A stretch of 64,000 bases of DNA from Myxococcales bacterium (GTDB lineage: Bacteria > Myxococcota_A > UBA9160 > SZUA-336). Below, piece after piece: positions 22,397 through 46,850 of this stretch; position 1 is the stretch's first letter; every line of letters starts with the position of its first letter. The position numbers were made by a program, and so were the translations under genes. Where the stretch lies: assembly GCA_013215565.1 (NCBI GenBank), contig JABSQV010000130.1:8880-72879 (forward strand), in the 5' to 3' direction. The notes under the pieces are model-generated. The model was not told the origin of the DNA. It saw only the letters and a list, made by a program, of their open reading frames with translations, and ran no database searches.

Positions 22397-22445
22397 GATG
22401 TTCTCTCTGTTGGTGTCTCCAAGGTACTGGGTGTACCCACTCACT
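22397..22445 (-). repeat. start-associated repeat, type B with GGTAC-N5-GTACCC
   Basis: CTCTCTGTTGGTGTCTCCAAGGTACTGGGTGTACCCAC. Confidence 0.7.
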
Positions 22446-22499
22446 GTAAACCACGATCACCCAACTTCTCGCCCATCAGCTCGACTGATACCAAGCAGC

Positions 22500-22976
22500 A
22501 TGGCGCCCACGAACAAGCAGCTCAACGACCGGCGAAAGCGGCGAAAGAACAGCAAGGCGAACGATGTGCTCGGCGAGCTGCTCGACTGGCAGCGGCCTCT
22601 GTTGATCCGCTGGCTGTTCGCCCAGGTCTGGAACAAGCACCAGCCCCAGGGGATCCAGCAGCGGACGAAAGATTACGCCCGCGAGGTCGCGACCGATCTG
22701 CTGGCGACGATGGATCTCGACATCATGGCGACCACGCCGCGGGGTCTGGAGAACGACCCCAAGTGGACCGATGCCCTCGGCGCCGTGTCGTCGTTCGACG
22801 CCCAGCGGCGCTGGCTCTGGATCGCGGTGCTCGTTGAGCAGACCGATCCGCCGCCCCAGGTTCGTGACCAGCTCTCGCGGCTGGGGTTGCTCTACGCAGA
22901 TATGGTCCGACAGCAGGCCGCGAACAAGGCGGGGTGGATCATCGGCGTGGGCTGGAAGGACGGAAAGAAACGATGA
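22500..22976 (+). CDS. hypothetical basic protein, co-oriented with methyltransferase
   Basis: ATG at 22500 (MAPTNKQLNDRRKRRKNSK); divergent from 22396 gene. Confidence 0.45.
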   Translation: MAPTNKQLNDRRKRRKNSKANDVLGELLDWQRPLLIRWLFAQVWNKHQPQGIQQRTKDYAREVATDLLATMDLDIMATTPRGLENDPKWTDALGAVSSFDAQRRWLWIAVLVEQTDPPPQVRDQLSRLGLLYADMVRQQAANKAGWIIGVGWKDGKKR

Positions 22977-23677
22977 CCCAGATCAGGCTGTTCAACGCGC
23001 CCACCCCACCCGGCCTGCCTCCCGGCATCGATCTGCGATGCTGTGATGTGGTTGACCTCCTCACCTCGCTCGATGAAACGCCCGCATTAGTGATCGCTGA
23101 TCCGCCGTGGACCTACAACCAAGCTCCGCCCAGACTTCCCGGCGACCAACCCATGAACGCCTCGGAGCACTACGATGGGCTCCCGGTGAGTGTGATCCGG
23201 GACCACTTCGCGCTCATCCCCAAAGGGTGCCCACGCCTTGCTCTGTGGGCGACGTGGCCGGTGTTCCTCCCTGAGTGGGATCTCAAACTCAAAAGGTGGG
23301 GCCGCCCGATCACTGGTGGTGCATGGTTCAAAAGCGACCCAAACGATGAAGGCCACTATGGTCCTGGTTTTCACTGGTCAGGGTGCAGCGAGCCCGTGCT
23401 GATTTACACGAAAGGCACAGCGTACTGCGATAGATCGTCACCGCTCCGAAACGCATGGCATGAGGCTCCGGGGAAGCACAGCCGAAAGCCCGTCGGGTGG
23501 ATGCGGCAGTGGGTGCGACGTTGGACCAAGCCTGGGGATCTCGTCCTCGATATGTACGCGGGGCTCGGCTCGGTCGCCGAGGTCTGTCTACTTGAGGAGC
23601 GGCGCTACATCGGTGCCGAGCTGGACCCAGCTCGACATCGGGACGCGCTGGGTCTGCTCGCCCAGGTCAGGCTCTAG
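22973..23677 (+). CDS. N6-adenine DNA methyltransferase, MT-A70-like (DPPW)
   Basis: ALVIADPPWTYN catalytic motif; start overlaps upstream stop. Confidence 0.7.
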   Translation: MTQIRLFNAPTPPGLPPGIDLRCCDVVDLLTSLDETPALVIADPPWTYNQAPPRLPGDQPMNASEHYDGLPVSVIRDHFALIPKGCPRLALWATWPVFLPEWDLKLKRWGRPITGGAWFKSDPNDEGHYGPGFHWSGCSEPVLIYTKGTAYCDRSSPLRNAWHEAPGKHSRKPVGWMRQWVRRWTKPGDLVLDMYAGLGSVAEVCLLEERRYIGAELDPARHRDALGLLAQVRL

Positions 23678-23980
23678 GAGCGGTAGCCGTGGGAGTCGGG
23701 CGGGGAGCTACGTCCACATATGCCCGCCTACGCTGCGACTGATACACTTGACCGGCCCGCCGCCGTCGAGGCACCTTCCCCGCTGGGAAGCGGCGGCGGG
23801 CTCTTCGGCGTCCGCGTCGTCGTTGACGACTGCCTGCCACAAGGTGAGGCGCGGCTAGTGTCGACGACGGACGAGGCGCGACTCGTGAACATTGGGGCCG
23901 CCGATGAGTGAACAAAAAACAGCAATTGAGAAGTTACGGAAACAATGGCGAAAGGAGGGCCGCCAGAAGATTCGCACTTA

Positions 23981-24205
23981 TCAGAAGGGCGGGATCACGA
24001 TCCTCACGCAAGAAGTGCGGCGGCGATCGTCATAGGCGATGCGCATGGCGCGCGACTCAGCGAGGAGGGCGCGCGACTCAGCGAGCAGCTCGGCGTAGGT
24101 CGGGGCGGGCTCGACATCGAACTCGGAGAGCCAGTGACCGTCAGTGGTCAGCGTGGTCCCTTTGGAGTCGTCAGCGGAGGGGGCGGTCGGTGTGCGTGTC
24201 GGCAT
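23981..24205 (-). CDS. hypothetical protein
   Basis: ATG at 24205 abutting conserved repeat; contains tandem LLAESRA duplication. Confidence 0.45.
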   Translation of the reverse strand: MPTRTPTAPSADDSKGTTLTTDGHWLSEFDVEPAPTYAELLAESRALLAESRAMRIAYDDRRRTSCVRIVIPPF

Positions 24206-24268
24206 GATGTTCTCTCTGTTGGTAGGTCCATCCTACGCGGCAGAGAGTCGATTGGACACCGGCAGACC
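24206..24268 (-). repeat. start-associated repeat, type A
   Basis: core plus GGACACCGGCAGACC box at 18-bp spacing. Confidence 0.8.
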
Positions 24269-24600
24269 TAAGTTTCTGGGGACTCTTTTCGCAGGTTGAC
24301 CTCGGCGACCCTGGTGACGTGCTCGACCAATCCGACCACTCGCTGCTGTCTCCTCGATGCTCGATCGACCATCCAGTCCTGAACCGTGCCCTTCTTGACG
24401 ACATCGGCACCGCGCCGGATCTGCCATCGCCGGTAGTCGATCATCGCCTGCACGTTGGGCTCGCTGTCGAGCCCCCCGATCATCCAGCCCTCGTCATCCC
24501 CCTCGCCAGGGAGCCATGTGATCGCTCGTTGGTCAGTCGACAAGGTCACCTCCTGCGCGCTGGTATCGGGTTCCGTGGTGGGCGGTGAGCCTGACGGCAA
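24268..24600 (-). CDS. hypothetical protein
   Basis: 110-aa ORF. Confidence 0.35.
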   Translation of the reverse strand: MPSGSPPTTEPDTSAQEVTLSTDQRAITWLPGEGDDEGWMIGGLDSEPNVQAMIDYRRWQIRRGADVVKKGTVQDWMVDRASRRQQRVVGLVEHVTRVAEVNLRKESPET

Positions 24601-24635
24601 GCGGTGTTTGGCGATACCTCTGGGCGAGGTGAACG

Positions 24636-25106
24636 ATGCCCAAGAACCCGAGAGCCTGCAAAATGTCTGGAGATGAAGACTGTCCGTGGCTCACCCTGAT
24701 GACCATGATCGAGCAGTACGAGACCTTGGCGGCCGTCCCGGTGATCACGACCGGCCCCAGCGCCAAGATCGCGCTGATGCACGTCCGCAGCCTGCAGAGG
24801 TTGTCCGACGCGCTCGATCTGTGCATCGATCACGTCGGTGGGTGGAAGACCGAGATGTTCGGAGCCTGGCCCACCTACGACATCCGAGGCAAGCTGCTCC
24901 GCAAGTCGATGCAGCTCATCGGTGCCGCTGTGGTCGCTCGCAAACTGGCCGAGCACGCCCGAGCTGGGAACAAGCGCGCGGCCAGGGCGACCTTGCACGG
25001 CGGGGTGACCAACGAGTTCATCCGCTTCCTCAAGGACGCGGCCCAGGACGAGGAGATCGTCGCCGACGTGGCGTTCAACCCCGGCGGCCCCGTGGCCGAG
25101 GCGTAG
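24636..25106 (+). CDS. hypothetical protein (first gene of plus-strand accessory cassette)
   Basis: 156-aa protein-like ORF; opposite-strand 472-aa ORF is its shadow. Confidence 0.45.
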   Translation: MPKNPRACKMSGDEDCPWLTLMTMIEQYETLAAVPVITTGPSAKIALMHVRSLQRLSDALDLCIDHVGGWKTEMFGAWPTYDIRGKLLRKSMQLIGAAVVARKLAEHARAGNKRAARATLHGGVTNEFIRFLKDAAQDEEIVADVAFNPGGPVAEA

Positions 25107-25107
25107 C

Positions 25108-25629
25108 ATGGGCGACCAGGACAGGTACACGGGGTGGGACTCGATCCTTGGTGCGTTGAAAGGGTTCGGTCGGTCGGCCGAGGCTGCGGGCAAGTCTGTG
25201 GACAAGCTGGCGAGGGCAGCATCGCCAGCCGCCTCCCCGGTCGAGCAGATCCGCAGGGCGCTCGGTGGTGGGTCCGAGCTGCGCAAGATCGTGGACAGCG
25301 CGGGGTGGAGTTTCTGGGAGCGAGGCGAGCGGCCTGAGAAGCTGCGGCACTCCGACGTGTCGATGCAGACCAACGCGGCGGGAGACCGCAGCGGGATCTG
25401 GGTCGGCAAGTTGCTGATCGCATCCTTCTCGGTGTCGTGTTTCGAGACCGAGAAGGGCATGATCGTCATCGACTGGGAGACCGTGTCGCTTGAGGTCATG
25501 CCGGGGGCGACCGAAGCCAGCGAGCGATCCGCTGCCGTCATGGCCGACTCGCTCAGGCGGATCGGCATGACCGAGGAACAGATCACAGCCACGCTCTTGG
25601 AGCACGGCATCATTTGGGAGCAAGAATGA
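25108..25629 (+). CDS. hypothetical protein
   Basis: 173-aa ORF, 2-nt spacer from upstream gene. Confidence 0.5.
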   Translation: MGDQDRYTGWDSILGALKGFGRSAEAAGKSVDKLARAASPAASPVEQIRRALGGGSELRKIVDSAGWSFWERGERPEKLRHSDVSMQTNAAGDRSGIWVGKLLIASFSVSCFETEKGMIVIDWETVSLEVMPGATEASERSAAVMADSLRRIGMTEEQITATLLEHGIIWEQE

Positions 25630-26999: not shown

Positions 27000-27212
27000 C
27001 CGTGCTGGGTGATACCATCCAGTGCCCATCGTGAAGGCGAAGGCATCCCCGAAGCGGCGTTCCTGCCCGACCCCCTCTCTGTTGGTACTAAGCGGTGTGG
27101 GAGGGCAGGGACGTCCAACCTCTGGTCGAGGGGTCGGCGCGCGGAACGGGTCATCGCGAACAGCTACACCAGCGATGTGCGAGGAGCCCAGTAAGTCGCG
27201 CCGGCCCTGAGA

Positions 27213-28946
27213 TCAGAGCGCCGAGTACGAGCCACCCTGTTGCAAGAGGTCGTAGGCGATCCGGTCGTAGACATCGGCCAGGCGGAAGTGGTCGGCGGCG
27301 CTGCCTTCATGCCAGACGATCCGGCCCTTGTCCTCGTTGAGCACTCTGACCGGGGCGCGCATCTGATCGCTCCATCCGAGCACGGTGAACACGTCGGCGG
27401 GGAACGTGCGGCGCCTCTCCTGAATGTCGGCGAACGACACATCGAACACGGCCGTCCTGTCCACCCTGACTTCTTGGATCCGGTACTTGAGTTGCATCCC
27501 GTAAGGCAGCGCACCAACTCGCGGTGTCGGGAAGAACCGACAGAGCCAGACCTGGGCGCCCCCGTTGTTGATGAAGTAGTCCCTCAGCTCTTGCGCCTTG
27601 TGGGTCTCGGGCTGGGCGTCGATCACGCATGACTTGACGTGGTAGCGGATCAGCGCATCCTGCACCTCGTCGAAGGTGCGGCACGCCTGCACCAGCACAG
27701 CTCGGCGCACCGGGGGCAGGCTCGCGTCGGGCTTGCCGTTCTGGCCCTTGGCGGCCTCGATGACGCTGATGGACAGGTTCATCACCGAGCCCACATCGAT
27801 CCCCGCGGTCACGGTCAGCCGTCGATATTGGTCCCCGCCCGAGTAGTCGAGGTTGTCCCCGATGGCGGCGGCCTCCAGCATCGACTGGTCCAGCCTCGCC
27901 CCGGAGTACTCGAATGGGATCCCCAGCACCGAGCAGTAGAACGCGGCGAGCTTGGTCGGGTCGCCCTGCGCCTTGAGCCACTCCAGGTACAGGTCGGTGA
28001 GGCGCTGAGACAGGACATCGAGTCGCGACATCCAATAGCCGCGTGTCGAGCCCTCCCCCTCGGCGACCCAGAGTGCTCCAGCAGCGACCCGATCGAAGGG
28101 CTCGGTGCATCGCCGACACACGGGTCGGATGTCGGGGCCGCCCTCCCAGTTGCCCTGGACGTGGTTGTGGGCCTGGGCGCCCGCCCACCCCTTGTGGTCG
28201 CGAGGCAACCACTGCCCAGTGCCCTCGTCCCTTCGGACCACGTTGATGAACCAGTCCACGGGCTGGCGCTCGCCACAGTGTCCGCACTGCATGTACCAGC
28301 GACGGCGATCGCTCTCATCGTAGAGGCGCGAGATCCCGACGTTGGGCAGCGTCGGGTTCCCCAGTCGGATCATCTGGGGGTAGGGGCTCTCTCTGAGTCG
28401 GTCCTTGGCCTTGGCGAGGTTCTCTGGATCGCAGTGGTCGAACTCGTCCACGATCAGCAGGTCGGCCGAGAACTCCACGAAGTCGCCGGGGGTGTTCGAT
28501 CCGAGGAACAGCATCGAGCCCGCGCCGAACTTCTTGAGCTTCAGGCTCCCCGTCCTCGCCTTCTTGGCCTTTTCGTTGCCCATGGTCATGCCGCCGGGGC
28601 ACCGCTCACGGTATGCGGGCACGAATCGCAGGAGGGGATCCACCCGCTGCTTCACGAACCGATCTCGGATCGAGTAGGTCGGAAGCACATAGGCAACGAT
28701 GCGACCTTGCCACCCAGCCTTCTGAAGCGCGATCTGGACCGACAGTTCGGACATCCCTGTCTGCACGGCCTTGCGGATCACCCAGTCGTTGCAGTTGGCG
28801 GCATCGGCGTACAACTCGATGAGGTACGGCTTGTCGACGAACGACATTGGCGTGCCGCGAGTCGATTGATGATGCGACAGCGCGAGACCCAGGACGGGAT
28901 GCTCGGCAGAGAGCTTCGCCATCGTCGAGTGGTACTGGTCGAGCAT
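27213..28946 (-). CDS. terminase large subunit (lambda GpA-like)
   Basis: KAVQTGMS Walker-A variant resembling lambda gpA KSARVGYS; LLIVDEFDH Walker B; 577 aa; first gene of leftward late operon. Confidence 0.8.
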   Translation of the reverse strand: MLDQYHSTMAKLSAEHPVLGLALSHHQSTRGTPMSFVDKPYLIELYADAANCNDWVIRKAVQTGMSELSVQIALQKAGWQGRIVAYVLPTYSIRDRFVKQRVDPLLRFVPAYRERCPGGMTMGNEKAKKARTGSLKLKKFGAGSMLFLGSNTPGDFVEFSADLLIVDEFDHCDPENLAKAKDRLRESPYPQMIRLGNPTLPNVGISRLYDESDRRRWYMQCGHCGERQPVDWFINVVRRDEGTGQWLPRDHKGWAGAQAHNHVQGNWEGGPDIRPVCRRCTEPFDRVAAGALWVAEGEGSTRGYWMSRLDVLSQRLTDLYLEWLKAQGDPTKLAAFYCSVLGIPFEYSGARLDQSMLEAAAIGDNLDYSGGDQYRRLTVTAGIDVGSVMNLSISVIEAAKGQNGKPDASLPPVRRAVLVQACRTFDEVQDALIRYHVKSCVIDAQPETHKAQELRDYFINNGGAQVWLCRFFPTPRVGALPYGMQLKYRIQEVRVDRTAVFDVSFADIQERRRTFPADVFTVLGWSDQMRAPVRVLNEDKGRIVWHEGSAADHFRLADVYDRIAYDLLQQGGSYSAL

Positions 28947-29138
28947 TCACCAAAGGTGCCGCCCAGCCCGACCGAAGTCAAGATGGGCGGCCTCATTGGG
29001 TTGTAGATGGAGCGACGAGGTCGGGCCTGCTCCGCCTTTCCCTGGGGGGTACCCAAGGCCCCACTACCGGGTCATCGCCCGATCACCGTAGCATGGGCCA
29101 ACGTGGTACACCAATCAGGGACGCCCAGGAGGTGCAGA

Positions 29139-29735
29139 GTGTCGAAGGCAGCGAAGGCAGAGCCAGTCGAGGAAGACCAGGCCGCGAAGTGGGTCAAACG
29201 AGAGTTGCTTGAACCCTGGGTCGGCAACCCCCGCGACAATGAGAAGGCGGTCGACCCGGTGGCGTTGTCGATCGAGCGGTTCGGGTTCGGAGCTCCGATC
29301 GTCGCGTGGAAGCCCGAGACCCCCATGGTTATCGCTGGGCACACTCGGCTCAAGGCCGCGACCAAGCTGGGCCTCGCCGAGGTACCTGTCCGCTGGATGT
29401 CGCACCTGACCGAAGCAGAGGCGAAGGCACTCGCCCTGGCCGACAATCGACTCGGTGAGTTGGCCGACTGGAACTTCGAAGGGCTGCAGGGAGAGATCCA
29501 GGCCCTCGCTGAGCAGGATGTCGACCTGTCGGGTCTGGGTTGGGCCGGCAACGAGTTGGAGGTGCTCAAAGGCAACCTCGAACAGTTCCTCCCGAAGCAG
29601 AAGCCGAAGCCGCCGAAGTCGTTGGAGTCTGAGCACTACATCGAGATCCGCTGCACCAACGAGCGACTGAATGAGATCCAGGATCAACTGCTCGCCTGGG
29701 ACGGTGAGGAAGACATCGAGGTACAGATCGCATGA
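29139..29735 (+). CDS. ParB-like nuclease domain protein
   Basis: GTG at 29139 with AGGAGG SD; NPR...GHTRLKAA ParB/Srx motifs. Confidence 0.6.
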   Translation: MSKAAKAEPVEEDQAAKWVKRELLEPWVGNPRDNEKAVDPVALSIERFGFGAPIVAWKPETPMVIAGHTRLKAATKLGLAEVPVRWMSHLTEAEAKALALADNRLGELADWNFEGLQGEIQALAEQDVDLSGLGWAGNELEVLKGNLEQFLPKQKPKPPKSLESEHYIEIRCTNERLNEIQDQLLAWDGEEDIEVQIA

Positions 29736-30580
29736 CCACCCCAGGCACCGAGCGCAACGTCAAGCAGGCCGAGAGGTTCGTCCAAGAGCACGATGGTCGA
29801 GTGACCTTCCAAGGCAAGTGCGAGGGCGAGGCGTGGCAGAAGCAGCTCCGAGATCGCTACCTGCATGAGGGCGCGCCGCCCGTCGACTTGAAGCTCAAGC
29901 GAGCCCGCGTGATCCCCGTCACCCGTCGACTCGCCGAACACATCATCTTCAAGTACGAGTGGCTCGGCACGATGGTGTCGACGGGTCGCCACTACGGGAT
30001 CTTCTTTGGTCCCTACTGCGCTGGGGTGACCTGCTCAGGCGTTGGATGCACTGGGGGCACCAACACGGCGAAGATGTTCGGCATGGAGACTCAGGAGATG
30101 TTGACCTTCGCCAGAGGGGCATGCGTCCACTGGGCACCAACGGGGGCCAACTCCAAGTTGGTGTCGTGGTCCTGCCGTCACCTCGCCGAGCACGGTCGGC
30201 TGACCGTCGCCTACGCAGATACCGACGCTGGGGAGATCGGGACAATCTACCAGGCGTGCGGTTGGACCTACATCGGCAAGGGCAGCTCGACGCGGCAGTG
30301 GGTCAGTCCCGAGGGCAAGATCCTCGATCAGAAGACCCCCGGCAACCTCGTTGAGCAGCGGGGGTTCCCGTCGAACAGCGGCGGCTGGCTCAAAGGTCAG
30401 CGCGCCCAGTGGGTTCAGGCGATGAGGGACGCGGGCTGGGTCGAGCAGATCACGAACCCGAAACACCGGTACGTTAAGGTGCTCCGGAAGCGGGACAAGG
30501 AACTGCATGCCCGGATCGCGGACATGGCGCAGCCCTACCCGAAGCGAGTGGGCACCTCGGCGGCCGCCGCCTCTCAGTAG
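29732..30580 (+). CDS. hypothetical protein (282 aa)
   Basis: Overlapping start with ParB gene; Cys/Gly-rich central region. Confidence 0.45.
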   Translation: MTTPGTERNVKQAERFVQEHDGRVTFQGKCEGEAWQKQLRDRYLHEGAPPVDLKLKRARVIPVTRRLAEHIIFKYEWLGTMVSTGRHYGIFFGPYCAGVTCSGVGCTGGTNTAKMFGMETQEMLTFARGACVHWAPTGANSKLVSWSCRHLAEHGRLTVAYADTDAGEIGTIYQACGWTYIGKGSSTRQWVSPEGKILDQKTPGNLVEQRGFPSNSGGWLKGQRAQWVQAMRDAGWVEQITNPKHRYVKVLRKRDKELHARIADMAQPYPKRVGTSAAAASQ

Positions 30581-30690: not shown

Positions 30691-30753
30691 TGTCTGCTCT
30701 CTGTTGGTAGGTCCAATATAGAGGATCGACATCTCATTGGATACCGGCAATCC
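30691..30753 (-). repeat. start-associated repeat, type A, orphan copy before 9-codon ORF
   Basis: core GGTAGGTCCAATATAG plus GGATACCGGCAATCC. Confidence 0.75.
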
Positions 30754-30756
30754 AGG

Positions 30757-30990
30757 TTATTCCCCGATCATTTCCGACCGCCGAGAAATCTGTGCGTCCA
30801 TCGCGTCGAGTACCTCGTCGAGATCCAGGCGGCCCCATTGGTCCACCAGCATGGCCGAGACGCCGTCATACCACCCCTCGCGGGTGTATTCGGCGATGTC
30901 GTCGTCGGTCATGGCGGCAATGATGTGGGCGGCGGCGGCCTCATCGTCGTCGGTCATGGCGGTAAGGGCTTCGGTAGTGGTGGCGGTCAT
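30757..30990 (-). CDS. small acidic hypothetical protein
   Basis: ATG at 30990 abutting conserved repeat; MTATTTEALTAMTDDDEAAAAH. Confidence 0.45.
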   Translation of the reverse strand: MTATTTEALTAMTDDDEAAAAHIIAAMTDDDIAEYTREGWYDGVSAMLVDQWGRLDLDEVLDAMDAQISRRSEMIGE

Positions 30991-31053
30991 GTTGTCCTCT
31001 CTGTTGGTAGGTCCATCCTACTTGGAGATCCGCGACTTGGATACCGGCCAACT
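30991..31053 (-). repeat. start-associated repeat, type A
   Basis: core plus GGATACCGGCCAACTC. Confidence 0.8.
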
Positions 31054-31072
31054 CGGTTTCACCCGACTTTAT

Positions 31073-34119: not shown

Positions 34120-34318
34120 CGGACACCTCGTAGGGCTCGACAGCGCCGCAGGGGCATCCGTCATCGGTGATGGTCTCGTGGCACTGGGTGCAGACGACCG
34201 ACTCGGCGAGCAGCTCAAGGCGCTGGTCCTCATCGAATCGGATGTGGACCGACTGGTCACAGTCGCCGTAGTCGTAGGAGCCGCAGATGTCGCAGCCGTA
34301 GGGATTGGGGTTGAGCAT
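34106..34318 (-). CDS. small Cys-rich protein
   Basis: MLNPNPYGCDICGSYDYGDCDQ...CTQCHETITDDGCPCG. Confidence 0.45.
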   Translation of the reverse strand: MLNPNPYGCDICGSYDYGDCDQSVHIRFDEDQRLELLAESVVCTQCHETITDDGCPCGAVEPYEVSDVEG

Positions 34319-34674
34319 TAGAGGCAGTCTCCGCCGAGGATGAAGGACTCGATCGTGGCGCTGCCGTACCCGTCGCCCTCAAAGGTCATGATGGCGCGGC
34401 CTTGACGCCGACGGAACTCGCGCTTGACGACCTTGAGGTCGGCCTGGACATCGGCGAACGTGTAGGTCTCGGTCTTCTCATCGTAGGAGGTCACGACGGT
34501 CGTGGTGACGCCCTCGGCGACACCCGAATCACGCGCGGCAGCAACGGCCGCGTTGTTGTCTTCGGACACGTAGTTGATGGCGGCGAGCCAGGCGGTCTCG
34601 ACCGACTTGAACACGCCGAGGTTCCCGTCTTCGGAGCCGCGAAGTATATAGACTGCTTTGTTGCGCTTCGACAT
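34318..34674 (-). CDS. hypothetical protein
   Basis: ATG at 34674 (MSKRNKAVYILRG) abutting conserved repeat; repeat-embedded ATG at ~34701 is in frame (MDLPTERHT-MSKR). Confidence 0.5.
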   Translation of the reverse strand: MSKRNKAVYILRGSEDGNLGVFKSVETAWLAAINYVSEDNNAAVAAARDSGVAEGVTTTVVTSYDEKTETYTFADVQADLKVVKREFRRRQGRAIMTFEGDGYGSATIESFILGGDCL

Positions 34675-34738
34675 TGTGTGCCTCTCTGTTGGTAGGTCCA
34701 TCCTATCGGAGTACCCATCTCTTGTATACCGGCAAACC
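34675..34738 (-). repeat. start-associated repeat, type A
   Basis: core plus GTATACCGGCAAACC. Confidence 0.8.
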
Positions 34739-34903
34739 GAGGTTTCTCGGTGCCTTTCTCGGATTCTAGCGACCGTTGGTCTCGACGTAGAAGGAGCAGA
34801 GGCCGCCGTCGATGCTCGGGTGGAAGTTCCAGCCCTCGTCATCCCGCTTGTCGATCGTGCCGACTTCGATGCCGTCTAGGTCGTTTCCTCGATTTAGGCA
34901 GCG

Positions 34904-35342: not shown

Positions 35343-35405
35343 ATTGTCTGCTCTCTGTTGGTAGGTCCATCCTACTGGTCTTCCAGTGGAATGGATACCG
35401 GCAAA
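35343..35405 (-). repeat. start-associated repeat, type A
   Basis: core plus GGATACCGGCAAACC. Confidence 0.8.
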
Positions 35406-35557
35406 CCTGACTTTCTCGGTCAGACCTCGATTAGTGCGTGCCCCTCGATCTGCAGCCCTGCATCGGCGAGCGCCTTCGCCCAGAGGCTCGCCCTGCCGCG
35501 GCCTGCTCACCGGGGGCCAGCTCGCTCAGAGCTGACCGATGCACGTACCGCGAGAAC

Positions 35558-39307: not shown

Positions 39308-39369
39308 TGGTGGGTCCAGCAGGACTCGAACCTGCGACTCTCGGCTTAAAAGGCCGGTGCTCTAAACTC
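39308..39369 (-). tRNA. tRNA-Lys(UUU)-like 3' fragment (D-stem 3' half through CCA); no complementary 5' acceptor strand
   Basis: RC reads TTAGAGCACCGGCCTTTTAAGCCGAGAGTCGCAGGTTCGAGTCCTGCTGGACCCACCA. Anticodon loop CTTTTAA, T arm GCAGG-TTCGAGT-CCTGC, CCA present. Upstream lacks GGGTCCA and a full D arm. Confidence 0.4.
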
Positions 39370-40292: not shown

Positions 40293-40294
40293 GC

Positions 40295-40621
40295 TCACGG
40301 CTTCACCTGAGTCACCTTGTGCGGCTGCACGTTGTAGAAGAATGCCCACTCGACGCTGCCGAGAGGACCGATGTACCCGATCGCCGGCGTGGGTCTCCAG
40401 AACGGCCACCCGTCCCACATCCCGACGTGGAGAACCTCGAACGTGGAGAACCCCGACGGGCAGTACCGCCACCCCTCGGGGTCATCGTTCATCTTGAGGA
40501 TGGTCTCCCAGCCTCGCCGCGCGTGGTCGGCATTGACCGCATTGTGCTGAGTGTGATCGTAGTCGCGATCGACGGGGCCGAGGAACTCACCCTCACGGAC
40601 GGTGACGGTTCTGGTCTTCAC
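40295..40621 (-). CDS. hypothetical protein (GTG start)
   Basis: GTG overlapping upstream stop (GTGA); Trp-rich C-terminus. Confidence 0.4.
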   Translation of the reverse strand: MKTRTVTVREGEFLGPVDRDYDHTQHNAVNADHARRGWETILKMNDDPEGWRYCPSGFSTFEVLHVGMWDGWPFWRPTPAIGYIGPLGSVEWAFFYNVQPHKVTQVKP

Positions 40622-40872
40622 GGCGACAGGTCCGCCAGCTTGTAGTGCGGGGTGTGGTAGTCGACCGGGTGCTCGCTCTCGGTGGCCTGGCCCTGGATCT
40701 TGCCCCAGGACACCGTGAGGGGATCGTGGAGATCGATCGACTCGCCATCCTCGCCCTCCAGCTCGGTGTTCCACGACTTGAGGCGCTCCTCGGCATCGGC
40801 GCGCGCTGCCTCTTCGGACACGTGGGCGGTGAAGCCCTCCTCCTCGTCGTATGCGAACCATTGCTTGCCCAT
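40618..40872 (-). CDS. acidic hypothetical protein
   Basis: ATG at 40872 preceded by variant B repeat with GGGTAC-N5-GTACCC. Confidence 0.45.
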   Translation of the reverse strand: MGKQWFAYDEEEGFTAHVSEEAARADAEERLKSWNTELEGEDGESIDLHDPLTVSWGKIQGQATESEHPVDYHTPHYKLADLSP

Positions 40873-40920
40873 GATGTCTCCAAATTTGCGGTGAGCGACG
40901 GGTACTGGATGTACCCACTC
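40873..40920 (-). repeat. type B element with GGGTACTGGATGTACCC palindrome
   Basis: palindrome ~40900-40916 upstream of ATG 40872. Confidence 0.6.
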
Positions 40921-40935: not shown

Positions 40936-41217
40936 TTAATTGCCAGAGGCGACGGGTCTGGGCCACACGGTCTTCAACCGGACCTCTCGACTATCGCTCC
41001 CAAAGTTGTGATCGCCATACACCAGTGTGTCGCCGTCCCAGCCCTTGATCCGACGTTCATCGGTTTGGACTTCACGCGCCTCGGCGTGGTCGGTCATCAT
41101 CTCGCTCGAAACGATGTCATGGACGCTCGACTTGGCGCGCACCTCGCTCTCGGCCAACACGTAGGCCGACACCTGAATGTCCACGCGGTAGAGCTTCATC
41201 GGTTTGGACCGACGCAT
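40936..41217 (-). CDS. hypothetical protein
   Basis: 93-aa ORF. Confidence 0.4.
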   Translation of the reverse strand: MRRSKPMKLYRVDIQVSAYVLAESEVRAKSSVHDIVSSEMMTDHAEAREVQTDERRIKGWDGDTLVYGDHNFGSDSREVRLKTVWPRPVASGN

Positions 41218-42014: not shown

Positions 42015-42133
42015 TTCGCGCGCCCATCCCCATCGGTGCGCGACTCCTCAGGCCCCAACACCCAGATGGTCGGTCCAACCTCGTCATCGGACAGCGCATA
42101 GGTGCGCGACTCCAGGCAGTGCGGCATCCGCGA

Positions 42134-42973
42134 CTATTCCCCTCCGGCCGCCTTCTTGGGCAGCTCGACTACCTCACCACCCTGATGGAGCCCGTCCTGA
42201 TCGACTTGCTCCCGCGTGACCAGCGCGCCGAGGATCGCGGACAGCTCCAGCGTGTCCTCGTACATCGCGGTCACGGTTGACGTATTCGCCTGCTTGGCCA
42301 TGCGCACCCTCACGGTCTCGACGATCCCGCCACCCATCGCAGTCTGAGCCGGGGGCAGCAGAATGTCCGCCAGCTCGTTGCGAGCGCGCAGGAACCCAGG
42401 CAGGTCGCGCATCGACAAGGTGGCCTCGCCTTTCGCGACCTTCTGGGCAAGCGTCCCGATCGCCGCATCCAGCAGGCCGAGGTGTCGGTGGGCGGTGACC
42501 TGATTGTCATCCCGCTCCAGCAGGTGCCTCTTGACGGTCTTGGCTGCTTGACCCTGCCGCCCAGGCTTGGGCGCGACCTCGTTCGGCAGGAAGGGCACCG
42601 ACATATTGGCTTCGACCGCAGCGACCTCACGCTGTCCCCAACGACCCAGGTACTTGGTGCGATATACGCGCATGGCGATTGCCTGCGCTGTCCCACCCAG
42701 CTCCTCAACGCGGCTGATCCAGTCGTTGCGCTTCTTCCACGATCTGATCGTCGAGTCGGATCGATGAACTGCGGCAGCAGCGACTCGGTAACTCCGCTTT
42801 CCCTCGTCCTGCATCGCCCAGAGCAGTAGGGCTCGGTGTTCGTGGGCACGCTCTCCGGGGTGCTTTTTCGACTTGATCCTGATGTCGAGAGAGCTGGGTT
42901 TTGAGGCCGACAATGCGGGCGCGGACTGTTGGTTTTTGCTCTTTGCTGCGCTCTTGGTCTTGGTCTTCGACAT
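42134..42973 (-). CDS. HTH DNA-binding protein (280 aa)
   Basis: Start MSKTKTKSAAKSK; helix-turn-helix RSYRVAAAAVHRSDSTIRSWKKRNDW. Confidence 0.5.
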   Translation of the reverse strand: MSKTKTKSAAKSKNQQSAPALSASKPSSLDIRIKSKKHPGERAHEHRALLLWAMQDEGKRSYRVAAAAVHRSDSTIRSWKKRNDWISRVEELGGTAQAIAMRVYRTKYLGRWGQREVAAVEANMSVPFLPNEVAPKPGRQGQAAKTVKRHLLERDDNQVTAHRHLGLLDAAIGTLAQKVAKGEATLSMRDLPGFLRARNELADILLPPAQTAMGGGIVETVRVRMAKQANTSTVTAMYEDTLELSAILGALVTREQVDQDGLHQGGEVVELPKKAAGGE

Positions 42974-43082
42974 CGGGTTGTCCCTGCTCGCTCCAATTCT
43001 ATCGCGATCTGGGCGAGCCTGCGCTGAGCCGCGCGATGGGTGCGCGGTTTCGCGCACCGGGTGCGAGATCATCGCGCACCCG

Positions 43083-43568: not shown

Positions 43569-43819
43569 CAGCGGACGAACGCGGTGCGGGTGATCAGGAT
43601 GTCGGACCCGTTCCGCAGATGGAGCTCCAGCTTGACGACCTCGAGGATCGGGATCGGGGTGAAGCGGACGATCCGATGCATCAGGAAGCCCGCCGAGGAC
43701 AGCACCCCACGCCGAGGCGCCTTCTCGGCCTTGCCCATGCGGTGCCAGATCCCAACGATGAGGTACACCCCGGTCGAGTTGCTGAACCGGTCGCCGATGT
43801 CGATCTGCTCAACCCTCAT
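43538..43819 (-). CDS. hypothetical protein
   Basis: Protein-like from MRVEQIDIGDRF. Confidence 0.4.
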   Translation of the reverse strand: MRVEQIDIGDRFSNSTGVYLIVGIWHRMGKAEKAPRRGVLSSAGFLMHRIVRFTPIPILEVVKLELHLRNGSDILITRTAFVRWCQLDGVEAV

Positions 43820-44036
43820 CGGCGTACTCAGGCAGGTGCTTGCAGCACTCGCAGATCCACTTCCCCGAGCGGTAGACCCACCCCTCCGCGATGGCCTGTT
43901 CGGCGACCTGCCTTTCCGTGTTGCCCTCGGACGCACACCCCGAATTGGCGTGGCAGTCCTCATCGCTGCAATCGACGAAGATCTCGATCAGCACCTCTCG
44001 GGTCAGGTGCTTCAGGGCGCCCCTCGGTACAGACAT
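43809..44036 (-). CDS. Cys-rich hypothetical protein
   Basis: DCSDEDCHANSGC...CECC. Confidence 0.4.
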   Translation of the reverse strand: MSVPRGALKHLTREVLIEIFVDCSDEDCHANSGCASEGNTERQVAEQAIAEGWVYRSGKWICECCKHLPEYADEG

Positions 44037-44341
44037 CACCAGTCTCCGATCTCGGACTTGGCCTCGGCCACCAACGCGGCCACCTGCTCCTCGAGCCACC
44101 CGGCCATGTGGGTGCGCAGCTCCTCGGGGATGATCCAGTCGGGGGTCTTGGTCTGCTTCAGCTTCAGCCCGATCTGGTTCTCGTCCCTGAGTCGAACGGC
44201 GACCTGGGCGAACTGGGCCGCGCGGGTGAGCAGCTCTCGCCGTCGCCGGGAGTCGTTGTCGCGCCGGTAGAGTTGATCGCTCACCAGATTGATCAGCTCC
44301 TCGACATCGGTGGGCGGCAGTGCGGGTTTGGCTTTGGGCAT
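44036..44341 (-). CDS. hypothetical protein
   Basis: ATG at 44341 (MPKAKPALPP) with GAGAGG SD; upstream part of ORF 44036..44542 is translation of the inverted repeat. Confidence 0.45.
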   Translation of the reverse strand: MPKAKPALPPTDVEELINLVSDQLYRRDNDSRRRRELLTRAAQFAQVAVRLRDENQIGLKLKQTKTPDWIIPEELRTHMAGWLEEQVAALVAEAKSEIGDW

Positions 44342-44384
44342 GTTGGTCCTCTCAGAATGGGATGCCCTGTTCGAGGGCGCTCCA

Positions 44385-44587
44385 ATGAGCCATCTGGTGA
44401 CACCGACAGACCGATACCAATAGGCAGAGGTGAGGTTGCGGGCCTTGGTCTTGGCTTCGCGCTCGATGCGCTCGGTGCGCTCCCGCTCCTCACGGAGTCT
44501 CCGCTGTCTCTCGGTCAGGGGTTTTCGGCGTCCCATGCTCACCTCTGCCTATTGGTATCGGTCTGTCGGTGTCACCAGATGGCTCAT
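44385..44587. repeat. perfect 50-bp inverted repeat, arms 44385-44434 and 44538-44587, 103-bp spacer
   Basis: ATGAGCCATCTGGTGACACCGACAGACCGATACCAATAGGCAGAGGTGAG and its exact reverse complement, seen directly. Confidence 0.85.
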
Positions 44588-44784
44588 GCCGCGTACTTCG
44601 CGAACCAGCACGGGGAGCAGACACAGATCACGATGGCCTCCCCAGACACCTTGGCGCGGTCTCTGACCTGCCGCTTGGGCATGAGACCGATCGGCCTGAA
44701 CCCTGCGAGCGAGCCCGCCTGGGTCGGGAACTCCAGCAGTCGGTGCTGGCACTCTCGACACCAGAGCAGCTCATTCGGCAGCAT
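44584..44784 (-). CDS. small zinc-ribbon protein
   Basis: MLPNELLWCRECQH...CVCSPC; stop codon lies inside right IR arm. Confidence 0.4.
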   Translation of the reverse strand: MLPNELLWCRECQHRLLEFPTQAGSLAGFRPIGLMPKRQVRDRAKVSGEAIVICVCSPCWFAKYAA

Positions 44785-45088
44785 CGGTCTCGGTCTCGGT
44801 CTCGGGGATCTCGACCCACCCGTGGTGTTGGGCGACGGCCTCGGCCAGGTCGACGGCGCGCTCGAACTGATCGGCACCTCGCTCGACCTGATCGACGAAC
44901 CGCTCGCCCTCCTTCTCCACCAGCGCGTAGCCCTGGGTGGCGATGGCGCCGGCGATCCCGTTGAGCACATCGGCGGCGTGCCTGATCTGGGTCAGAGCGT
45001 TGCCCGCTCGCATCAGACCCTCGCCGGCCTTGTCCATCGCGGTCAACCCTTTTTTGCTGGCGTCACCAGCTCTGCCTCTGAGACTCAT
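44771..45088 (-). CDS. hypothetical protein
   Basis: Protein-like from MSLRGRAGDASKKG. Confidence 0.4.
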   Translation of the reverse strand: MSLRGRAGDASKKGLTAMDKAGEGLMRAGNALTQIRHAADVLNGIAGAIATQGYALVEKEGERFVDQVERGADQFERAVDLAEAVAQHHGWVEIPETETETDAAE

Positions 45089-45486
45089 CGCTGCCCTCCC
45101 TGCTTGCGGGTCCACCACTGGTCGTGCATCCCAGCTGCCGAGAACATGTTCTCCCACTCGGACCAGATCCCACGTCGAACGCGATGGTGGGTCCGGTTGA
45201 CGCGGCGCTGCCACCAGCGAAGGACGGGGCTGGTCGCTCCCTCCTCGATGGCATCAAGCACCCAGAGTCGGCCACCCTCGCGCTCGACCATATGGGCGAT
45301 CTTGTTGATGATCTCCTCAGGCCAGAGTTGTTGCTCCATTCGACCGTCGCCAGCCTGGGCGATGGGCGAGCGGTCGAGAAAGGGGACGTGCCCGTTGTGG
45401 CGAGCGAGGATCGAGAGCGCGATCTGGCGACGATGCCAGAGCACACCCTGAGGGGCGACGATGAGGATTGGGCGGCGGGCGGGCAT
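45085..45486 (-). CDS. hypothetical protein
   Basis: 133-aa Trp-rich ORF. Confidence 0.45.
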   Translation of the reverse strand: MPARRPILIVAPQGVLWHRRQIALSILARHNGHVPFLDRSPIAQAGDGRMEQQLWPEEIINKIAHMVEREGGRLWVLDAIEEGATSPVLRWWQRRVNRTHHRVRRGIWSEWENMFSAAGMHDQWWTRKQGGQR

Positions 45487-45514
45487 GTGAACCTCGATGG
45501 GCTGGGGTGGGCGG

Positions 45515-45847
45515 TCAGAAGGGGGCGGTCATATCTTCTTGGGTGATCTGGAAGGTCGCGTCACCAGCAGAGGCGCGAGAGCTGCGCTTGGTGAGGATGA
45601 TCTCGCCCGCGTCGGCGTTGATCCGCAGCTCGAGCCCCAGCTCGGAGAGCAGGATGAACACAGCCGGCCAGGGCGGAACGCGCTTCTCGGCACCCGTGGC
45701 GAAGGAGCTGATCGTCTGTTTGCGGAATCCCAGGTGCTCTCCGAGCTTGACGGAGCTCCGACCGGGCTCGGCCTCGATCCATCTGCGGCGCAGCTCGGCG
45801 AAGATCCAGTTGCGGGGTCGACCTTGCTGGGTGGGCTTCGCGGTCAT
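45515..45847 (-). CDS. XRE-family HTH DNA-binding protein
   Basis: LGEHLGFRKQTISSFATG Cro/CI-type HTH; ATGA overlap with sigma gene. Confidence 0.5.
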   Translation of the reverse strand: MTAKPTQQGRPRNWIFAELRRRWIEAEPGRSSVKLGEHLGFRKQTISSFATGAEKRVPPWPAVFILLSELGLELRINADAGEIILTKRSSRASAGDATFQITQEDMTAPF

Positions 45848-46401
45848 GCTGCTCCTTGCTCTCTTGTGCGGTCCCGCAGCTTGCGGAGTCGCCAGTTGCG
45901 AGCGGCTCGGGTGATCCCGAGCTTCTCGTTGATGTCCTCGGTCGACCAGTCCTCGAGGACGGTCTGCATCGCGACCGTCTGGGTCTCGTTGGCGATGGTG
46001 TACAGCTCGGCGACCCGCTGGTTCGCATCGTGGTGGCGCTCGAACATGGTGACCAGATTGCACATCGGGTCCATGGACGTGACCTTGGTGCGCTGCCGCT
46101 GCTCGATCCCCACGTTCCGCGAGCGCACCCGCAACAGGCGCAGCCGGGTCAGGCTCGCCCGCGACTTGATCCAGGACCTGCAGCCCTGGGACGAGCAGTA
46201 GGGGCACGGCCTGGCCTTGTCGGAGCGCGTCGGGTCGAACAGATCGAACGCGGTGACGAGATCGAGGCAGAGATCCTGCTGGAAGTCGTTGGGGTCGATC
46301 CCGCGAATGCGGAACATGTTCGCGCGGCTGTACCGCTCGATGGCTTGGGCGTGCTGCAGGATGAAAACCCATGCCGGGTTCTCGGTTGTTGGGCGGGTCA
46401 T
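45844..46401 (-). CDS. sigma-70 family minimal sigma factor (regions 2 and 4)
   Basis: DLCLDLVTAFDLFDP region-2-like and STEDINEKLGITRAARNWRLRKLRD region-4 HTH; ATG at 46401 followed by repeat and GGGTAC-N5-GTACCC palindrome. Confidence 0.5.
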   Translation of the reverse strand: MTRPTTENPAWVFILQHAQAIERYSRANMFRIRGIDPNDFQQDLCLDLVTAFDLFDPTRSDKARPCPYCSSQGCRSWIKSRASLTRLRLLRVRSRNVGIEQRQRTKVTSMDPMCNLVTMFERHHDANQRVAELYTIANETQTVAMQTVLEDWSTEDINEKLGITRAARNWRLRKLRDRTREQGAA

Positions 46402-46850
46402 TAGTCGCTGTCTCTCTCTGATGGTTGGGCGGATGGTAACAGATTGTGGGTACGAGGTGTACCCGGATCCCGCGACCTTTCCGGCATCGAAGACCAGAGC
46501 GGGAAGGGTGGGGCATAGCCGCGAGTTTCGATCCAGAGATGGATCATCCCGCCGCGTGCTGCCGCCGAGGGTGTGGGGCCTCCGTCGAGCAGTCGTCGGA
46601 GGCAGTGACTCACGATCGGATCGTTGCAGTGCTCGACGTAGAAGTCCCTGATCTCTTGTCGGATCCTGGGCCACCGTCGCGCCCACCGTCGCATGGTGTC
46701 GATGTCCCATCGGGTCAGACCGCCGTCGCCCTGCAGGGTGTCGATCAGCGCCTCGGCCAGCTTCTCCATCGGCTCCCATCGAGCGATCTCGGTGAGCGGG
46801 GCGATCTCCAGGGAGAGCATGATCAAGCTGGCTGGATCTCCCTTCACCAC
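46401..46850 (-). CDS. hypothetical protein; 3' end uncertain (reads through repeat)
   Basis: N-terminal two thirds protein-like (MVKGDPASLIMLSLEIAPLTEIARWEPMEKLAEALIDTLQGDGG); GC3 collapses before the repeat, true stop or frameshift probably near 46500. Confidence 0.3.
   Translation of the reverse strand: MVKGDPASLIMLSLEIAPLTEIARWEPMEKLAEALIDTLQGDGGLTRWDIDTMRRWARRWPRIRQEIRDFYVEHCNDPIVSHCLRRLLDGGPTPSAAARGGMIHLWIETRGYAPPFPLWSSMPERSRDPGTPRTHNLLPSAQPSERDSD
46402..46470 (-). repeat. start-associated repeat variant plus GGGTACGAGGTGTACCC palindrome
   Basis: CTCTCTCTGATGGTTGGG then palindrome ~46448-46464. Confidence 0.65.

Follow-up and report, generated by a model that had tools for sequence, protein, structure and literature searches.

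Repressor operators of lambda-type phages are 17-bp dyads that are bound by helix-turn-helix dimers and overlap early promoters. In MerR-family operators, the dyad fills the promoter spacer, and MerR-type spacers are over-long at 19-20 bp. Cluster K mycobacteriophages carry start-associated sequences (SAS) and extended SAS, with the consensus GGGATAGGAGCCC (PMC3203893). The operator of Streptomyces CsoR is ATACCC-N5-GGGTAT (PMC3902906), and the ricR promoter of M. tuberculosis contains TACCCCGCTGGGTA (PMC3944814). The locus compared here with these systems lies in the window, the whole stretch of 64,000 nucleotides that was analyzed, which belongs to an uncultured phage; nucleotide similarity to any isolated phage was not found. 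A motif built on GGGTAC is enriched, sharply spaced, fixed relative to promoter-like elements and start codons, and conserved without covariation. Its palindromes are read, with moderate confidence, as candidate operators of a sequence-specific, oligomeric DNA-binding regulator.

The three palindromes of the window, none with an assigned strand, are as follows.
22422..22438: site 1, AGGTAC-N5-GTACCC dyad
40900..40916: site 2, perfect GGGTAC-N5-GTACCC dyad
46436..46464: site 3, GGGTAC-N5-GTACCC-N6-TGTTAC in gene orientation

The exact pattern GGGTAC-N5-GTACCC occurs twice in the window (40900-40916 and 46448-46464) and never across 100 dinucleotide-preserving shuffles. The shorter GGTAC-N5-GTACC picks up 22423-22437 as well, again with 0 in shuffles; the complete 17-mer of site 1 (22422-22438) is AGGTACTGGGTGTACCC, with one mismatch. 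All three 17-bp palindromes of the first-pass annotation are present where it had placed them, and their distances to leftward starts, given there as 20-50 nt, are 26 nt (22396), 28 nt (40872), and 47 nt (46401). Its list of related half-sites stood in part: GTACCCACTC, found in the window only at 22433, 40911, and 51780, does occur at the last of these, but the sites at 21137 (GTACCCGCTG) and 34711 (GTACCCATCT) have GTACCC alone in common. Nor do all precede leftward starts, as the half-site at 51780 lies before the rightward start at 51826.

In gene (minus) orientation, site 1 reads GGGTACACC-CA-GTACCT; its proximal half overlaps the -10-like TACCTT (22421-22426), and GTTTAC, a third but weak hexamer, is found 7 nt upstream within the -35-like box GGTTTACA (22445-22452). 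Site 2 occupies the 63 nt that separate genes 40936-41199 and 40618-40872, which run in the same direction, and a convincing -35/-10 pair was not found around it. Sites 1 and 2 have the 20-mer GAGTGGGTACAYCCAGTACC in common, alike at about 19 of 20 nt, while their flanks differ, which suggests selection on the dyad. In site 3, the distal GGGTACACC stands in place of the 8-nt -35-like box, the -10-like TACCAT lies at 46433-46438, and GTACCC takes the place it has in the 48958 and 51826 promoters. A called 148-aa ORF (46401-46847) runs across site 3, which falls in its 3' end; the counterpart of this ORF in the relative L013 ends at the position of the left half-site. That left half is absent in L013, the sole relative with the sigma-gene upstream region, which counts against the operator reading. 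In near-identical strain contigs, the dyads are intact throughout, and a lone SNP near site 3 lies outside the dyad.

The repeat subfamily in which the palindromes were said to be embedded is real. It is a promoter-plus-leader family of about 14 promoter-like repeats, laid out as an 8-nt box, 17-18 nt, TANNNT, GGACCT, the leader ACCAACAGAGAG, and ATG. The leader copies are located as follows.
22403..22414, minus strand: leader ACCAACAGAGAG, holding the Shine-Dalgarno-like AGAGAG, 5-9 nt before ATG
11700, 21108, 24212, 30697, 30997, 34682, 35351, 48965, and 50205, minus strand: leader copies
46414 (ACCATCAGAGAG) and 51583 (AACAACAGAGAG), minus strand: variant leader copies
51808 and 52025, plus strand: leader copies

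The elements of this family are predicted promoters, assigned by their pattern. A scan of 40-53 kb with the sigma-70 consensus gave no match, which counts against the operator reading. Two promoter classes have the -10 and the leader in common, and in an alignment of the 14 promoters the GGGTAC motif falls in the spacer, the -35-like box, or the -10-like hexamer. As a separate observation, sites 1 and 3 each have one half that falls on a -10-like or -35-like element. Owing to this overlap, the symmetry at these sites could partly stem from promoter boxes that hold the self-complementary GTAC.

GGGTAC is the top promoter-enriched hexamer, with 10 of its 27 copies in 1043 nt (1.6% of the window; p ~6e-13). 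GGGTACNCC has 7 copies against 0.94 expected and GGTACACC has 8 against 0.56, and bare GTAC has 145 copies in the window, 15 of them in promoter regions. The recognized unit is the GGGTAC half-site, with the extended form GGGTACAYC. Half-sites are found in both orientations relative to the downstream gene, those at 40900, 46448, 48999, and 50264 facing away from any start, and the motif is therefore not a one-way promoter element. Further copies lie in a divergent gap.
29046..29112, no strand assigned: motif copies between TerL and the ParB_N/Mom operon
29046-29054: overlapping palindrome GGGGTACCC
29105-29112: GGTACACC

The comparison set comprised the window phage and five relatives with 57-64% TerL identity. 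In the pooled relatives, GGGTAC again leads the hexamers enriched between genes: 23 of its 46 copies fall in the intergenic 7.8% of the sequence (p ~4e-17). The conserved arrangement is everted GTACCC-N7-GGGTAC: at no more than one mismatch, the six phages have 14 sites at spacer 7, against 0-1 at each other spacer from 0 to 15 and ~0.05 per locus in shuffles. The N5 arrangement occurs in none of the five relatives, which counts against the operator reading. An operator-like role, as first proposed, remains the best reading in view of enrichment, conservation, and lack of covariation, but GGGTAC-N5-GTACCC is confined to the window phage and is not the conserved form. The 19-bp everted dyad overlies the spacer of the promoter together with the TAC that opens the -10-like TACNNT, 23-36 nt ahead of most start codons; by inspection, TTGNNN stands 1-3 nt upstream of the distal half in 8 of 11 sites. 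L145 has three perfect everted copies with unrelated spacers, each 25-27 nt before ATG. The everted dyads of the window, with no strand assigned, are listed below.
48986..49004: GTACCC-N7-GTGTAC (one mismatch) in the VWA gene promoter (start 48958), with -35-like TTGTGG at 49006-49011 and -10-like TACCAT at 48984-48989; ends 27 nt before ATG
51780..51798: GTACCC-N7-GTGTAC (one mismatch) in a rightward promoter (ATG 51826), with -35-like TTGTGC at 51772-51777 and -10-like TACCTT at 51795-51800; ends 27 nt before ATG
50251..50269: GTACCC-N7-GGGTAT (one mismatch) preceding the MoxR ATPase gene (start 50195); the class A box GGTATCCA coincides with the proximal half of the dyad
21137..21155: weaker GTTCAC-N7-GGGTAC (two mismatches, gene orientation), within the promoter that precedes gene 20442-21101; -10-like TAAATT follows 2 nt after the end of GGGTACTCC
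34711..34729: weaker GTATAC-N7-GGGTAC (two mismatches, gene orientation), within the class A promoter that precedes gene 34318-34674; -10-like TAGGAT follows 2 nt after the end of GGGTACTCC

The half-site and its exact spacing recur in five phages before unrelated downstream genes, which argues against the palindromes being a functionless by-product of recent promoter-repeat duplication. Sites 1 and 2 do resemble paralogous copies, with GAGTGGGTACAYCCAGTACC, TTGGAGAC, and ATCATG in common and indels between; yet the flanks of site 3 are unlike theirs, and the motif occurs in both orientations. This origin is already unlikely and has only a very slight chance of being correct. The exact 7-nt spacing and the fixed -10 placement are likewise unexplained if GTAC is the target of a phage methyltransferase or other modification, or of a host restriction system, with clustering at promoters coupling modification to transcription. 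Such coupling is found at the Dam sites upstream of the Mu mom operon. An N6_N4 methyltransferase adjoins site 1, Mom and a ParB_N protein are encoded in the window, ParB_N-methyltransferase fusions exist in relatives, and motif copies precede the ParB_N operon in the window, L141, L142, and L145. However, GTAC itself is common and only the longer GGGTAC with fixed spacing is special, making a modification target highly improbable.

Where everted sites vary, one arm is altered, and changes on both sides occur in 0 of 6 pairs, in sites picked at no more than one mismatch, a threshold that by itself excludes double changes. The lack of compensatory change argues against nucleic-acid hairpins, either a 6-bp mRNA stem-loop that acts as a signal in processing, stability, or protein binding, or a promoter formed by extruded hairpin DNA, like the early promoters of phage N4. 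The predicted minimum-energy RNA structure does contain the 6-bp hairpin at sites 2 and 3, read-through transcripts from upstream genes would span both, and the arms are conserved while the loops vary. On the other hand, the folding z-scores are weak (-1.9, -1.6, and 0.0), and site 1, in a divergent gap without an upstream gene on the same strand, leaves its stem unused. Every departure among the 14 sites breaks pairs, and the two-mismatch sites likewise lack compensatory changes. The Shine-Dalgarno position would place the transcription start downstream of the dyad, and the window showed no giant virion RNA polymerase. Hairpins are accordingly improbable.

The gene downstream of site 3 had been called a sigma factor, and it indeed belongs to a divergent ECF-type family; the next gene had been labeled XRE.
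45844..46401, minus strand: divergent ECF-type sigma factor, 185 aa, first gene downstream of site 3
45515..45847, minus strand: orphan protein, 110 aa, earlier called XRE; DNA-binding role putative

The XRE label did not hold, as the 110-aa protein has no Pfam or PDB sequence match, no homologs, and no significant fold match. Its AlphaFold model (pLDDT 57) has a helix-strand-helix-helix-hairpin order, and the weak fold matches of this low-confidence model are mostly winged-helix domains. The supposed HTH protein at 42134-42973 has sub-threshold matches only (HTH_28 and HTH_23). Pfam scans of the ~70 called proteins tested gave no confident HTH repressor, which counts against the operator reading.

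ECF-type sigmas commonly drive their own promoter, and one is encoded directly downstream of site 3. It is possible, though rather unlikely, that the GTAC motifs are core promoter elements, with GGTACACC as a variant -35 and GTACCWT as a variant -10, read by RNA polymerase with a host sigma or the phage ECF-type sigma; the self-complementarity of GTAC alone would then account for the palindromes. The distal GGGTACACC of site 3 stands exactly where other members carry the 8-nt box GGTTGTGG or GGTATCCA, a TACCTC ahead of the 52771-53391 gene likewise has GGTACACC 15 nt upstream, and the proximal half always gives the TAC of TACNNT, fixed 23-36 nt from ATG. Nevertheless, both arms are kept at one exact spacing, although RNA polymerase can do without dyad symmetry. 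Four or five half-sites face away from any gene start, inspection found no consistent second element 16-18 nt downstream of GGGTAC, the motif is absent from most promoters of the repeat family, and the -10 and leader are the same in both promoter classes.

The preferred reading remains that of an operator, whose regulator is probably a repressor. GGGTAC would be recognized as a half-site, usually paired as everted GTACCC-N7-GGGTAC, and the everted dyad would be laid over a sigma-70-type promoter (TTGNNN, 17-18 nt, TACNNT) followed by a short 5' UTR with a Shine-Dalgarno sequence and ATG. Sites 1 and 3 each have three hexamers in alternating orientation, ~7 and ~5 bp apart (R-7-L-5-R), so the N5 palindrome may be where adjacent half-sites of one system meet. 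A single rigid dimer could not bind the inverted N5 and everted N7 pairs in an identical manner, which counts against this scheme. The protein, if it binds the motif, would occupy the -10 and -35 region and keep RNA polymerase out, with repression as the expected effect. The repressed subset of promoters would consist of those of the ECF sigma operon, the MoxR and VWA operons, the divergent 22396/22500 region, and small genes at about 51.8 kb.

Most likely, the motif represents a commonplace type of phage control element, here in a new group of phages. MerR operators are similar in that the dyad begins just after the -35 and fills the spacer, and the mer operator has GTAC-containing arms; in contrast, promoter spacers here are 17-18 bp, and no MerR-like protein was detected. 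With CsoR and RicR operators, the motif appears to share by analogy an everted dyad in promoters with nearly the same half-sites (TACCC ... GGGTA) and with C and G tracts that face the center. CsoR/RicR proteins bind as tetramers, and an operator therefore usually has more than two contacts. Here the spacer measures 7 nt, whereas theirs is 4-5 (TAC-X11-GTA versus TAC-X9-GTA), the outer G and C that complete the GTAC cores are conserved here, and no CsoR-like gene was found in the window or related loci. Like SAS (PMC3203893), the family has a short, conserved, asymmetric repeat, here ACCAACAGAGAG, close before many start codons; in both cases, imperfect inverted repeats whose spacer varies precede roughly half of the copies, and the consensus is particular to the lineage. 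In contrast to SAS (PMC3203893), the sequences are unrelated, the arms are 6-9 nt rather than 17 bp, -35-like and -10-like elements are clear, and the repeats are found as well in the half of the genome with the structural genes. The window showed neither an integrase nor any other sign of lysogeny. Compared with lambda-type operators, two geometries are used here (an inverted one whose spacer is 5 nt and an everted one whose spacer is 7 nt), the cognate repressor was not found among the ~70 called proteins tested, and the sites spread over more than 30 kb and many operons instead of one immunity region. Like those operators, they have dyad half-sites about one helical turn apart, occur in several copies per genome, and lie over the -35, spacer, and -10, including the promoter of the regulatory operon.

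Of the new results, the most useful is the everted dyad GTACCC-N7-GGGTAC. It has a GTAC core and a spacer of exactly 7 nt and, on sequence evidence, is conserved as a promoter-associated element across an entire group of uncultured phages. The window has a G+C content of ~64.5%, encodes a tailed phage, and belongs to a 78,129-bp metagenome scaffold, scaffold_31 of ENA ERZ23487716. Its landmarks are as follows:

572-4759, minus strand, tape-measure protein
14570-15547, minus strand, major capsid protein
17775-20417, minus strand, portal
27213-28946, minus strand, large terminase (TerL)
from 53.8 kb, plus strand, replication genes

DNA-level similarity to isolated phages is absent (no nucleotide match among 50,697 phage records), the top TerL identity to any isolated phage is 25%, and a TerL search of viral contigs gave a single match, also at 25% identity. 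TerL homologs at 50-64% identity are many and lie on long metagenome contigs, some of them 74-101 kb; five such loci, L141 to L145 (57-64%), were compared. NCBI lists one window protein under a Myxococcales MAG. Rfam places two tRNA genes at 14213-14284 (-) and 39311-39369 (-), with 53.8 and 34.2 bits, and ARAGORN reported none; a further tRNA-like sequence may occupy the 14.3-14.5 kb gap. A 384-nt non-coding stretch (53519-53902) lies ahead of the replication genes.

About 14 intergenic repeats in the window finish with the leader ACCAACAGAGAG, and an ATG follows 5-9 nt later. Read in the direction of the gene, each aligned copy has an 8-nt box starting GGT, then 17-18 nt, TANNNT, GGACCT, and the leader. 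The relatives have a canonical AGGAG where the window has AGAGAG; thus the leader is read as a short 5' UTR carrying a ribosome-binding site, with TANNNT at a suitable position for a -10 element. The same AGGAG rules out leaderless transcripts in which the leader itself is the -10. A consensus scan of 40-53 kb finds no canonical sigma-70 promoter, and the promoters described here are pattern-assigned. Leader scans of viral contigs (18-mer and degenerate pattern) gave chance single matches only, those of metagenomes seven unrelated contigs only, and those of genomes no match. Three metagenome contigs of ~70% G+C (L134:1557-1589, L139, and L140), without protein similarity to the window, repeat the window's 20-mer TAGGACCTACCAACAGAGAG exactly, between a TTGAC-like -35 and a small gene that follows; it is either the same -10 and leader in another mobile element or host, or a coincidence.

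The repeats comprise two promoter classes. The box GGTATCCA, within the 12-nt GCCGGTATCCAA, occurs at 11.7, 24.2, 30.7, 31.0, 34.7, and 35.4 kb, mostly with TAGGAT, and its 50.2 kb copy carries TACCTT. The strongly conserved 12-nt box is at the -35 position, 17 nt before TAGGAT, in promoters that are mostly upstream of structural and late-region operons:

11700-11764, minus strand, promoter with the 12-nt box
24212-24276, minus strand, promoter with the 12-nt box
30697-30761, minus strand, promoter with the 12-nt box
30997-31061, minus strand, promoter with the 12-nt box
34682-34746, minus strand, promoter with the 12-nt box
35351-35415, minus strand, promoter with the 12-nt box
50205-50260, minus strand, promoter with the 12-nt box

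This box is a natural candidate target of the phage ECF-type sigma factor or of an activator. The other class, at 21.1, 22.4, 48.9, 51.6, 51.8, and 52.0 kb, has the TTGNNN-like boxes GGTTGTGG, GGTTGTGC, GGTTTACA, GGTTCACA, and GGTTGCAA, mostly with TACCTT or TACCAT; at the sigma-gene promoter, GGTACACC occupies the box position. Several genes around these promoters are worth recording. An ORF at 51826-52203 (+), which follows a rightward promoter and leader at 51808 and runs into the next promoter and the gene starting at 52043, is absent from the public annotation. Three successive genes in 47429-51575 (-), each led by a promoter, encode a DUF6744 protein, a bpMoxR AAA+ ATPase, and a VWA-domain protein, and the MoxR-VWA pair is unusual for a phage early region. 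Directly after the MoxR gene, a terminator-like hairpin (CCCCGACGC-N12-GCGTCGGGG, 49012-49041) adjoins the -35-like box of the promoter that follows, forming a compact terminator-promoter junction.

Dyads lie upstream of ~8 of the ~14 leader copies. The first-pass annotation had drawn attention to inverted GGGTAC-N5-GTACCC palindromes as operator-like sites, and these are present at 40900-40916 (site 2) and 46448-46464 (site 3), with GGTAC-N5-GTACC at 22423-22437 (site 1); neither form appears in 100 shuffles, so that two or three N5 dyads against zero exceed random expectation. The palindromes lie 26, 28, and 47 nt upstream of leftward starts as claimed, but the half-site at 51780 serves a rightward start. 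The related half-site GTACCCACTC is confirmed near 51781 and otherwise occurs only at 22433 and 40911, not at 21140 or 34711. The kind of element, a putative regulatory protein-binding dyad, was well judged, but the proposals for the geometry that matters and for the binding protein were mistaken or lack support.

In gene orientation, site 3 reads GGGTAC-5-GTACCC-6-TGTTAC and site 1 reads GTTTAC-7-GGGTAC-5-GTACCT, with its final hexamer on the -10. At site 3, the GTACCC, together with the degenerate proximal hexamer, lines up with the N7 dyads in the promoters of the 48958 (VWA gene) and 51826 (a rightward small gene) starts, and the extra GGGTAC sits on the box. Each of the two sites is an array of three hexamers that alternate in orientation, separated by ~7 and ~5 nt; the N5 palindrome is therefore read as the junction between adjacent half-sites of one system. 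Site 2 consists of an N5 dyad alone, without a convincing promoter, in a 63-nt gap with co-directional genes on either side; it has 19 of 20 nt in common with site 1, and the flanks differ. For comparison site by site, the other close contigs are strains at least 99.7% identical and uninformative, and the sole informative relative is the 765-bp contig L013 (61% protein identity), the one that covers the sigma-gene upstream region. It retains the leader, the -10 region, and a GTACC, and has GATAAT, which contains the upstream gene's stop codon, in place of the left half-site of site 3. That gene, a called 148-aa ORF at 46401-46847 (-), is conserved with L013:1-110 (PPFPLWSxMPER); the L013 version ends ~21 codons earlier, whereas the window ORF reads through the promoter-like region and site 3, which falls within its 3' end, to the sigma start codon.

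Neither the window's leader nor the N5 palindrome is found in any of L141 to L145; the recurrent arrangement in the phage group is the everted N7 dyad. In L145, three copies are perfect; their spacers are unrelated, and each copy precedes an ATG by 25-27 nt. Copies with one mismatch are present in the other four loci. The window copies are:

48986-49004, N7 dyad, one mismatch
51780-51798, N7 dyad, one mismatch
50251-50269, N7 dyad, one mismatch
21137-21155, weaker N7 copy, two mismatches, ~9 bp further upstream
34711-34729, weaker N7 copy, two mismatches, ~9 bp further upstream

Across the six phages, every spacer length from 0 to 15 was scanned: 14 everted sites have spacer 7, each other length yields 0-1, and shuffles have ~0.05 N7 sites per locus. 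TTGNNN is found 1-3 nt upstream of the distal arm in most N7 sites and the proximal arm provides the TAC of a TACNNT hexamer, so the dyad extends across the spacer and onto the first bases of the -10. In the alignment of the 14 repeats and in the relatives, the dyads overlap -35-like, spacer, and -10-like elements of these pattern-inferred promoters. In MerR-type operators, the dyad is inside a promoter spacer of 19-20 bp; the TTGNNN-TANNNT spacers here are 17-18 nt, and MerR-type placement was rejected.

The half-site itself is enriched. GGGTAC, counted on both strands, is the hexamer most enriched in the promoter regions, which contain 10 of its 27 copies within 1043 nt (p ~6e-13), and GGGTACNCC and GGTACACC are likewise far above expectation in the window. 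As a second motif, CTGTGATC is not significant. GGTACACC has eight copies in total against 0.56 expected, three of them inside coding regions (10025, 18528, and 43762, in a tail gene, the portal gene, and a small gene). GGGTAC is concentrated intergenically in each of the five relatives, and in the pooled loci it ranks first for intergenic enrichment, 7.8% of the sequence containing 23 of its 46 copies (p ~4e-17). Relative to the downstream gene, copies in the window face either way, and their positions vary: on the box, in the spacer, on the -10, and upstream of the box. Three readings of the motif as a core promoter element were rejected. As a SigB/SigF-type -10, it would need GTTT 14-16 nt upstream, and GTTT is just 9 nt upstream; as an ECF-sigma -35, it would leave four or five copies facing away from any start, with no common element at +16-18; and back-to-back divergent -10 elements are contradicted by most sites, which have no divergent gene.

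A structured RNA or DNA hairpin could also produce a dyad, and predicted RNA folding is weakly better than in shuffles (z-scores -1.9 to 0.0). Yet in the 14 N7 sites, none of the six pairs is altered on both sides, and 10 of 84 cells lack pairing; the sites were picked by similarity to the pattern, which disfavours double changes. Each departure breaks a pair, and the changes in the two-mismatch sites are not compensatory either. The hairpin reading is disfavoured on these counts; the lack of covariation, the weak folding, and site 1, whose predicted fold does not use the stem, favour recognition of each half-site by a protein.

The sigma factor annotated downstream of site 3 is borne out. Although the 185-aa protein at 45844-46401 (-) has no direct Pfam match and one homolog above 50% identity among 5.8 billion proteins, a full HMMER search finds 49 remote relatives; Sigma70_r2 is matched by 21 of the 39 scanned, and their profile matches regions 2 and 4 of solved ECF sigma factors (E ~1e-7), including solved SigE structures. 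The protein is a divergent ECF-type sigma factor. Its model from a 3-sequence alignment is unusable (pLDDT 40), and searches of single protein sequences against solved structures gave no match. The 'XRE' label of the 110-aa protein (45515-45847, minus strand) finds no support: the protein is an orphan without a family match, and its single-sequence model has pLDDT 57, with insignificant Foldseek matches, mostly to winged-helix domains (all E >0.6). The 279-aa protein at 42134-42973, proposed as a helix-turn-helix binder, has HTH_28 and HTH_23 matches, both sub-threshold. The window holds no confident HTH protein, and the other scanned proteins have no Pfam-recognised DNA-binding domain; ~14 kb of the scaffold lies beyond it.

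ParB_N proteins occur in the window and, among the five relatives, in L141, L142, and L145, with motif copies upstream of the ParB_N operons in all four. They lie amid DNA-modification genes, and no HTH is seen in them. The window genes are:

22973-23677, plus strand, N6_N4 methyltransferase
29139-29735, plus strand, ParB_N protein
29732-30580, plus strand, Mom-family protein

ParB_N-methyltransferase fusions are present in L141 and L145, and 7-deazaguanine synthesis genes are found in L141 and L142 (FolE and QueD in both, QueC only in L141, plus a radical-SAM gene). A weaker variant of the host-repressor idea discussed below, likewise improbable, would have the motif read by a new phage-encoded DNA-binding family outside Pfam, such as the conserved ParB_N proteins acting like KorB.

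The shared leader, two promoter classes, the conserved GTAC-core dyad, and the phage ECF-type sigma factor are the four parts of a concrete regulatory code for a widespread, uncultured phage group without an isolated relative. The dyad's short length, sharp definition, and conservation make it usable for locating regulated genes and, by phylogenetic profiling, the binding protein. Were that protein a host sensor, phage gene expression would be linked to host physiology; otherwise, this is ordinary phage operator control.

Known CsoR/RcnR-type operators, TACCC-N4/5-GGGTA, closely resemble the N7 dyad. The CsoR operator is ATACCC-N5-GGGTAT (PMC3902906) and the RicR operator is TACCCCGCTGGGTA (PMC3944814); like both, the N7 dyad has everted TACCC and GGGTA half-sites with inner C and G tracts. 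In contrast to both, its spacer is 7 nt in 14 of 14 sites rather than 4-5 nt (TAC-X9-GTA), and no everted sites occur at 4 or 5. The likeness may serve as a lead only. Across the clade, the N7 dyad could be the operator of a host repressor, a CsoR/RcnR-like sensor of stress or metal that the phages do not encode, but this is improbable; no CsoR/RcnR-family gene was found in the window (tblastn probes and Pfam scans) or in L141 to L145. Were it so, an uncultured phage group would tie its promoters to a host physiological signal.

Cluster K mycobacteriophages have SAS/ESAS elements, a conserved start-associated repeat with upstream inverted repeats (PMC3203893). The present system similarly has a short conserved repeat at a fixed distance before starts and inverted repeats upstream of a subset, whereas its leader ACCAACAGAGAG is unrelated in sequence to the SAS GGGATAGGAGCCC (PMC3203893), and the phage is not related to Cluster K. 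In general design, the dyad resembles phage repressor operators: as at the operator of a dimeric helix-turn-helix repressor, a dyad-symmetric site occurs beyond chance, it would lie over the pattern-assigned core promoter, and several copies are present per genome.
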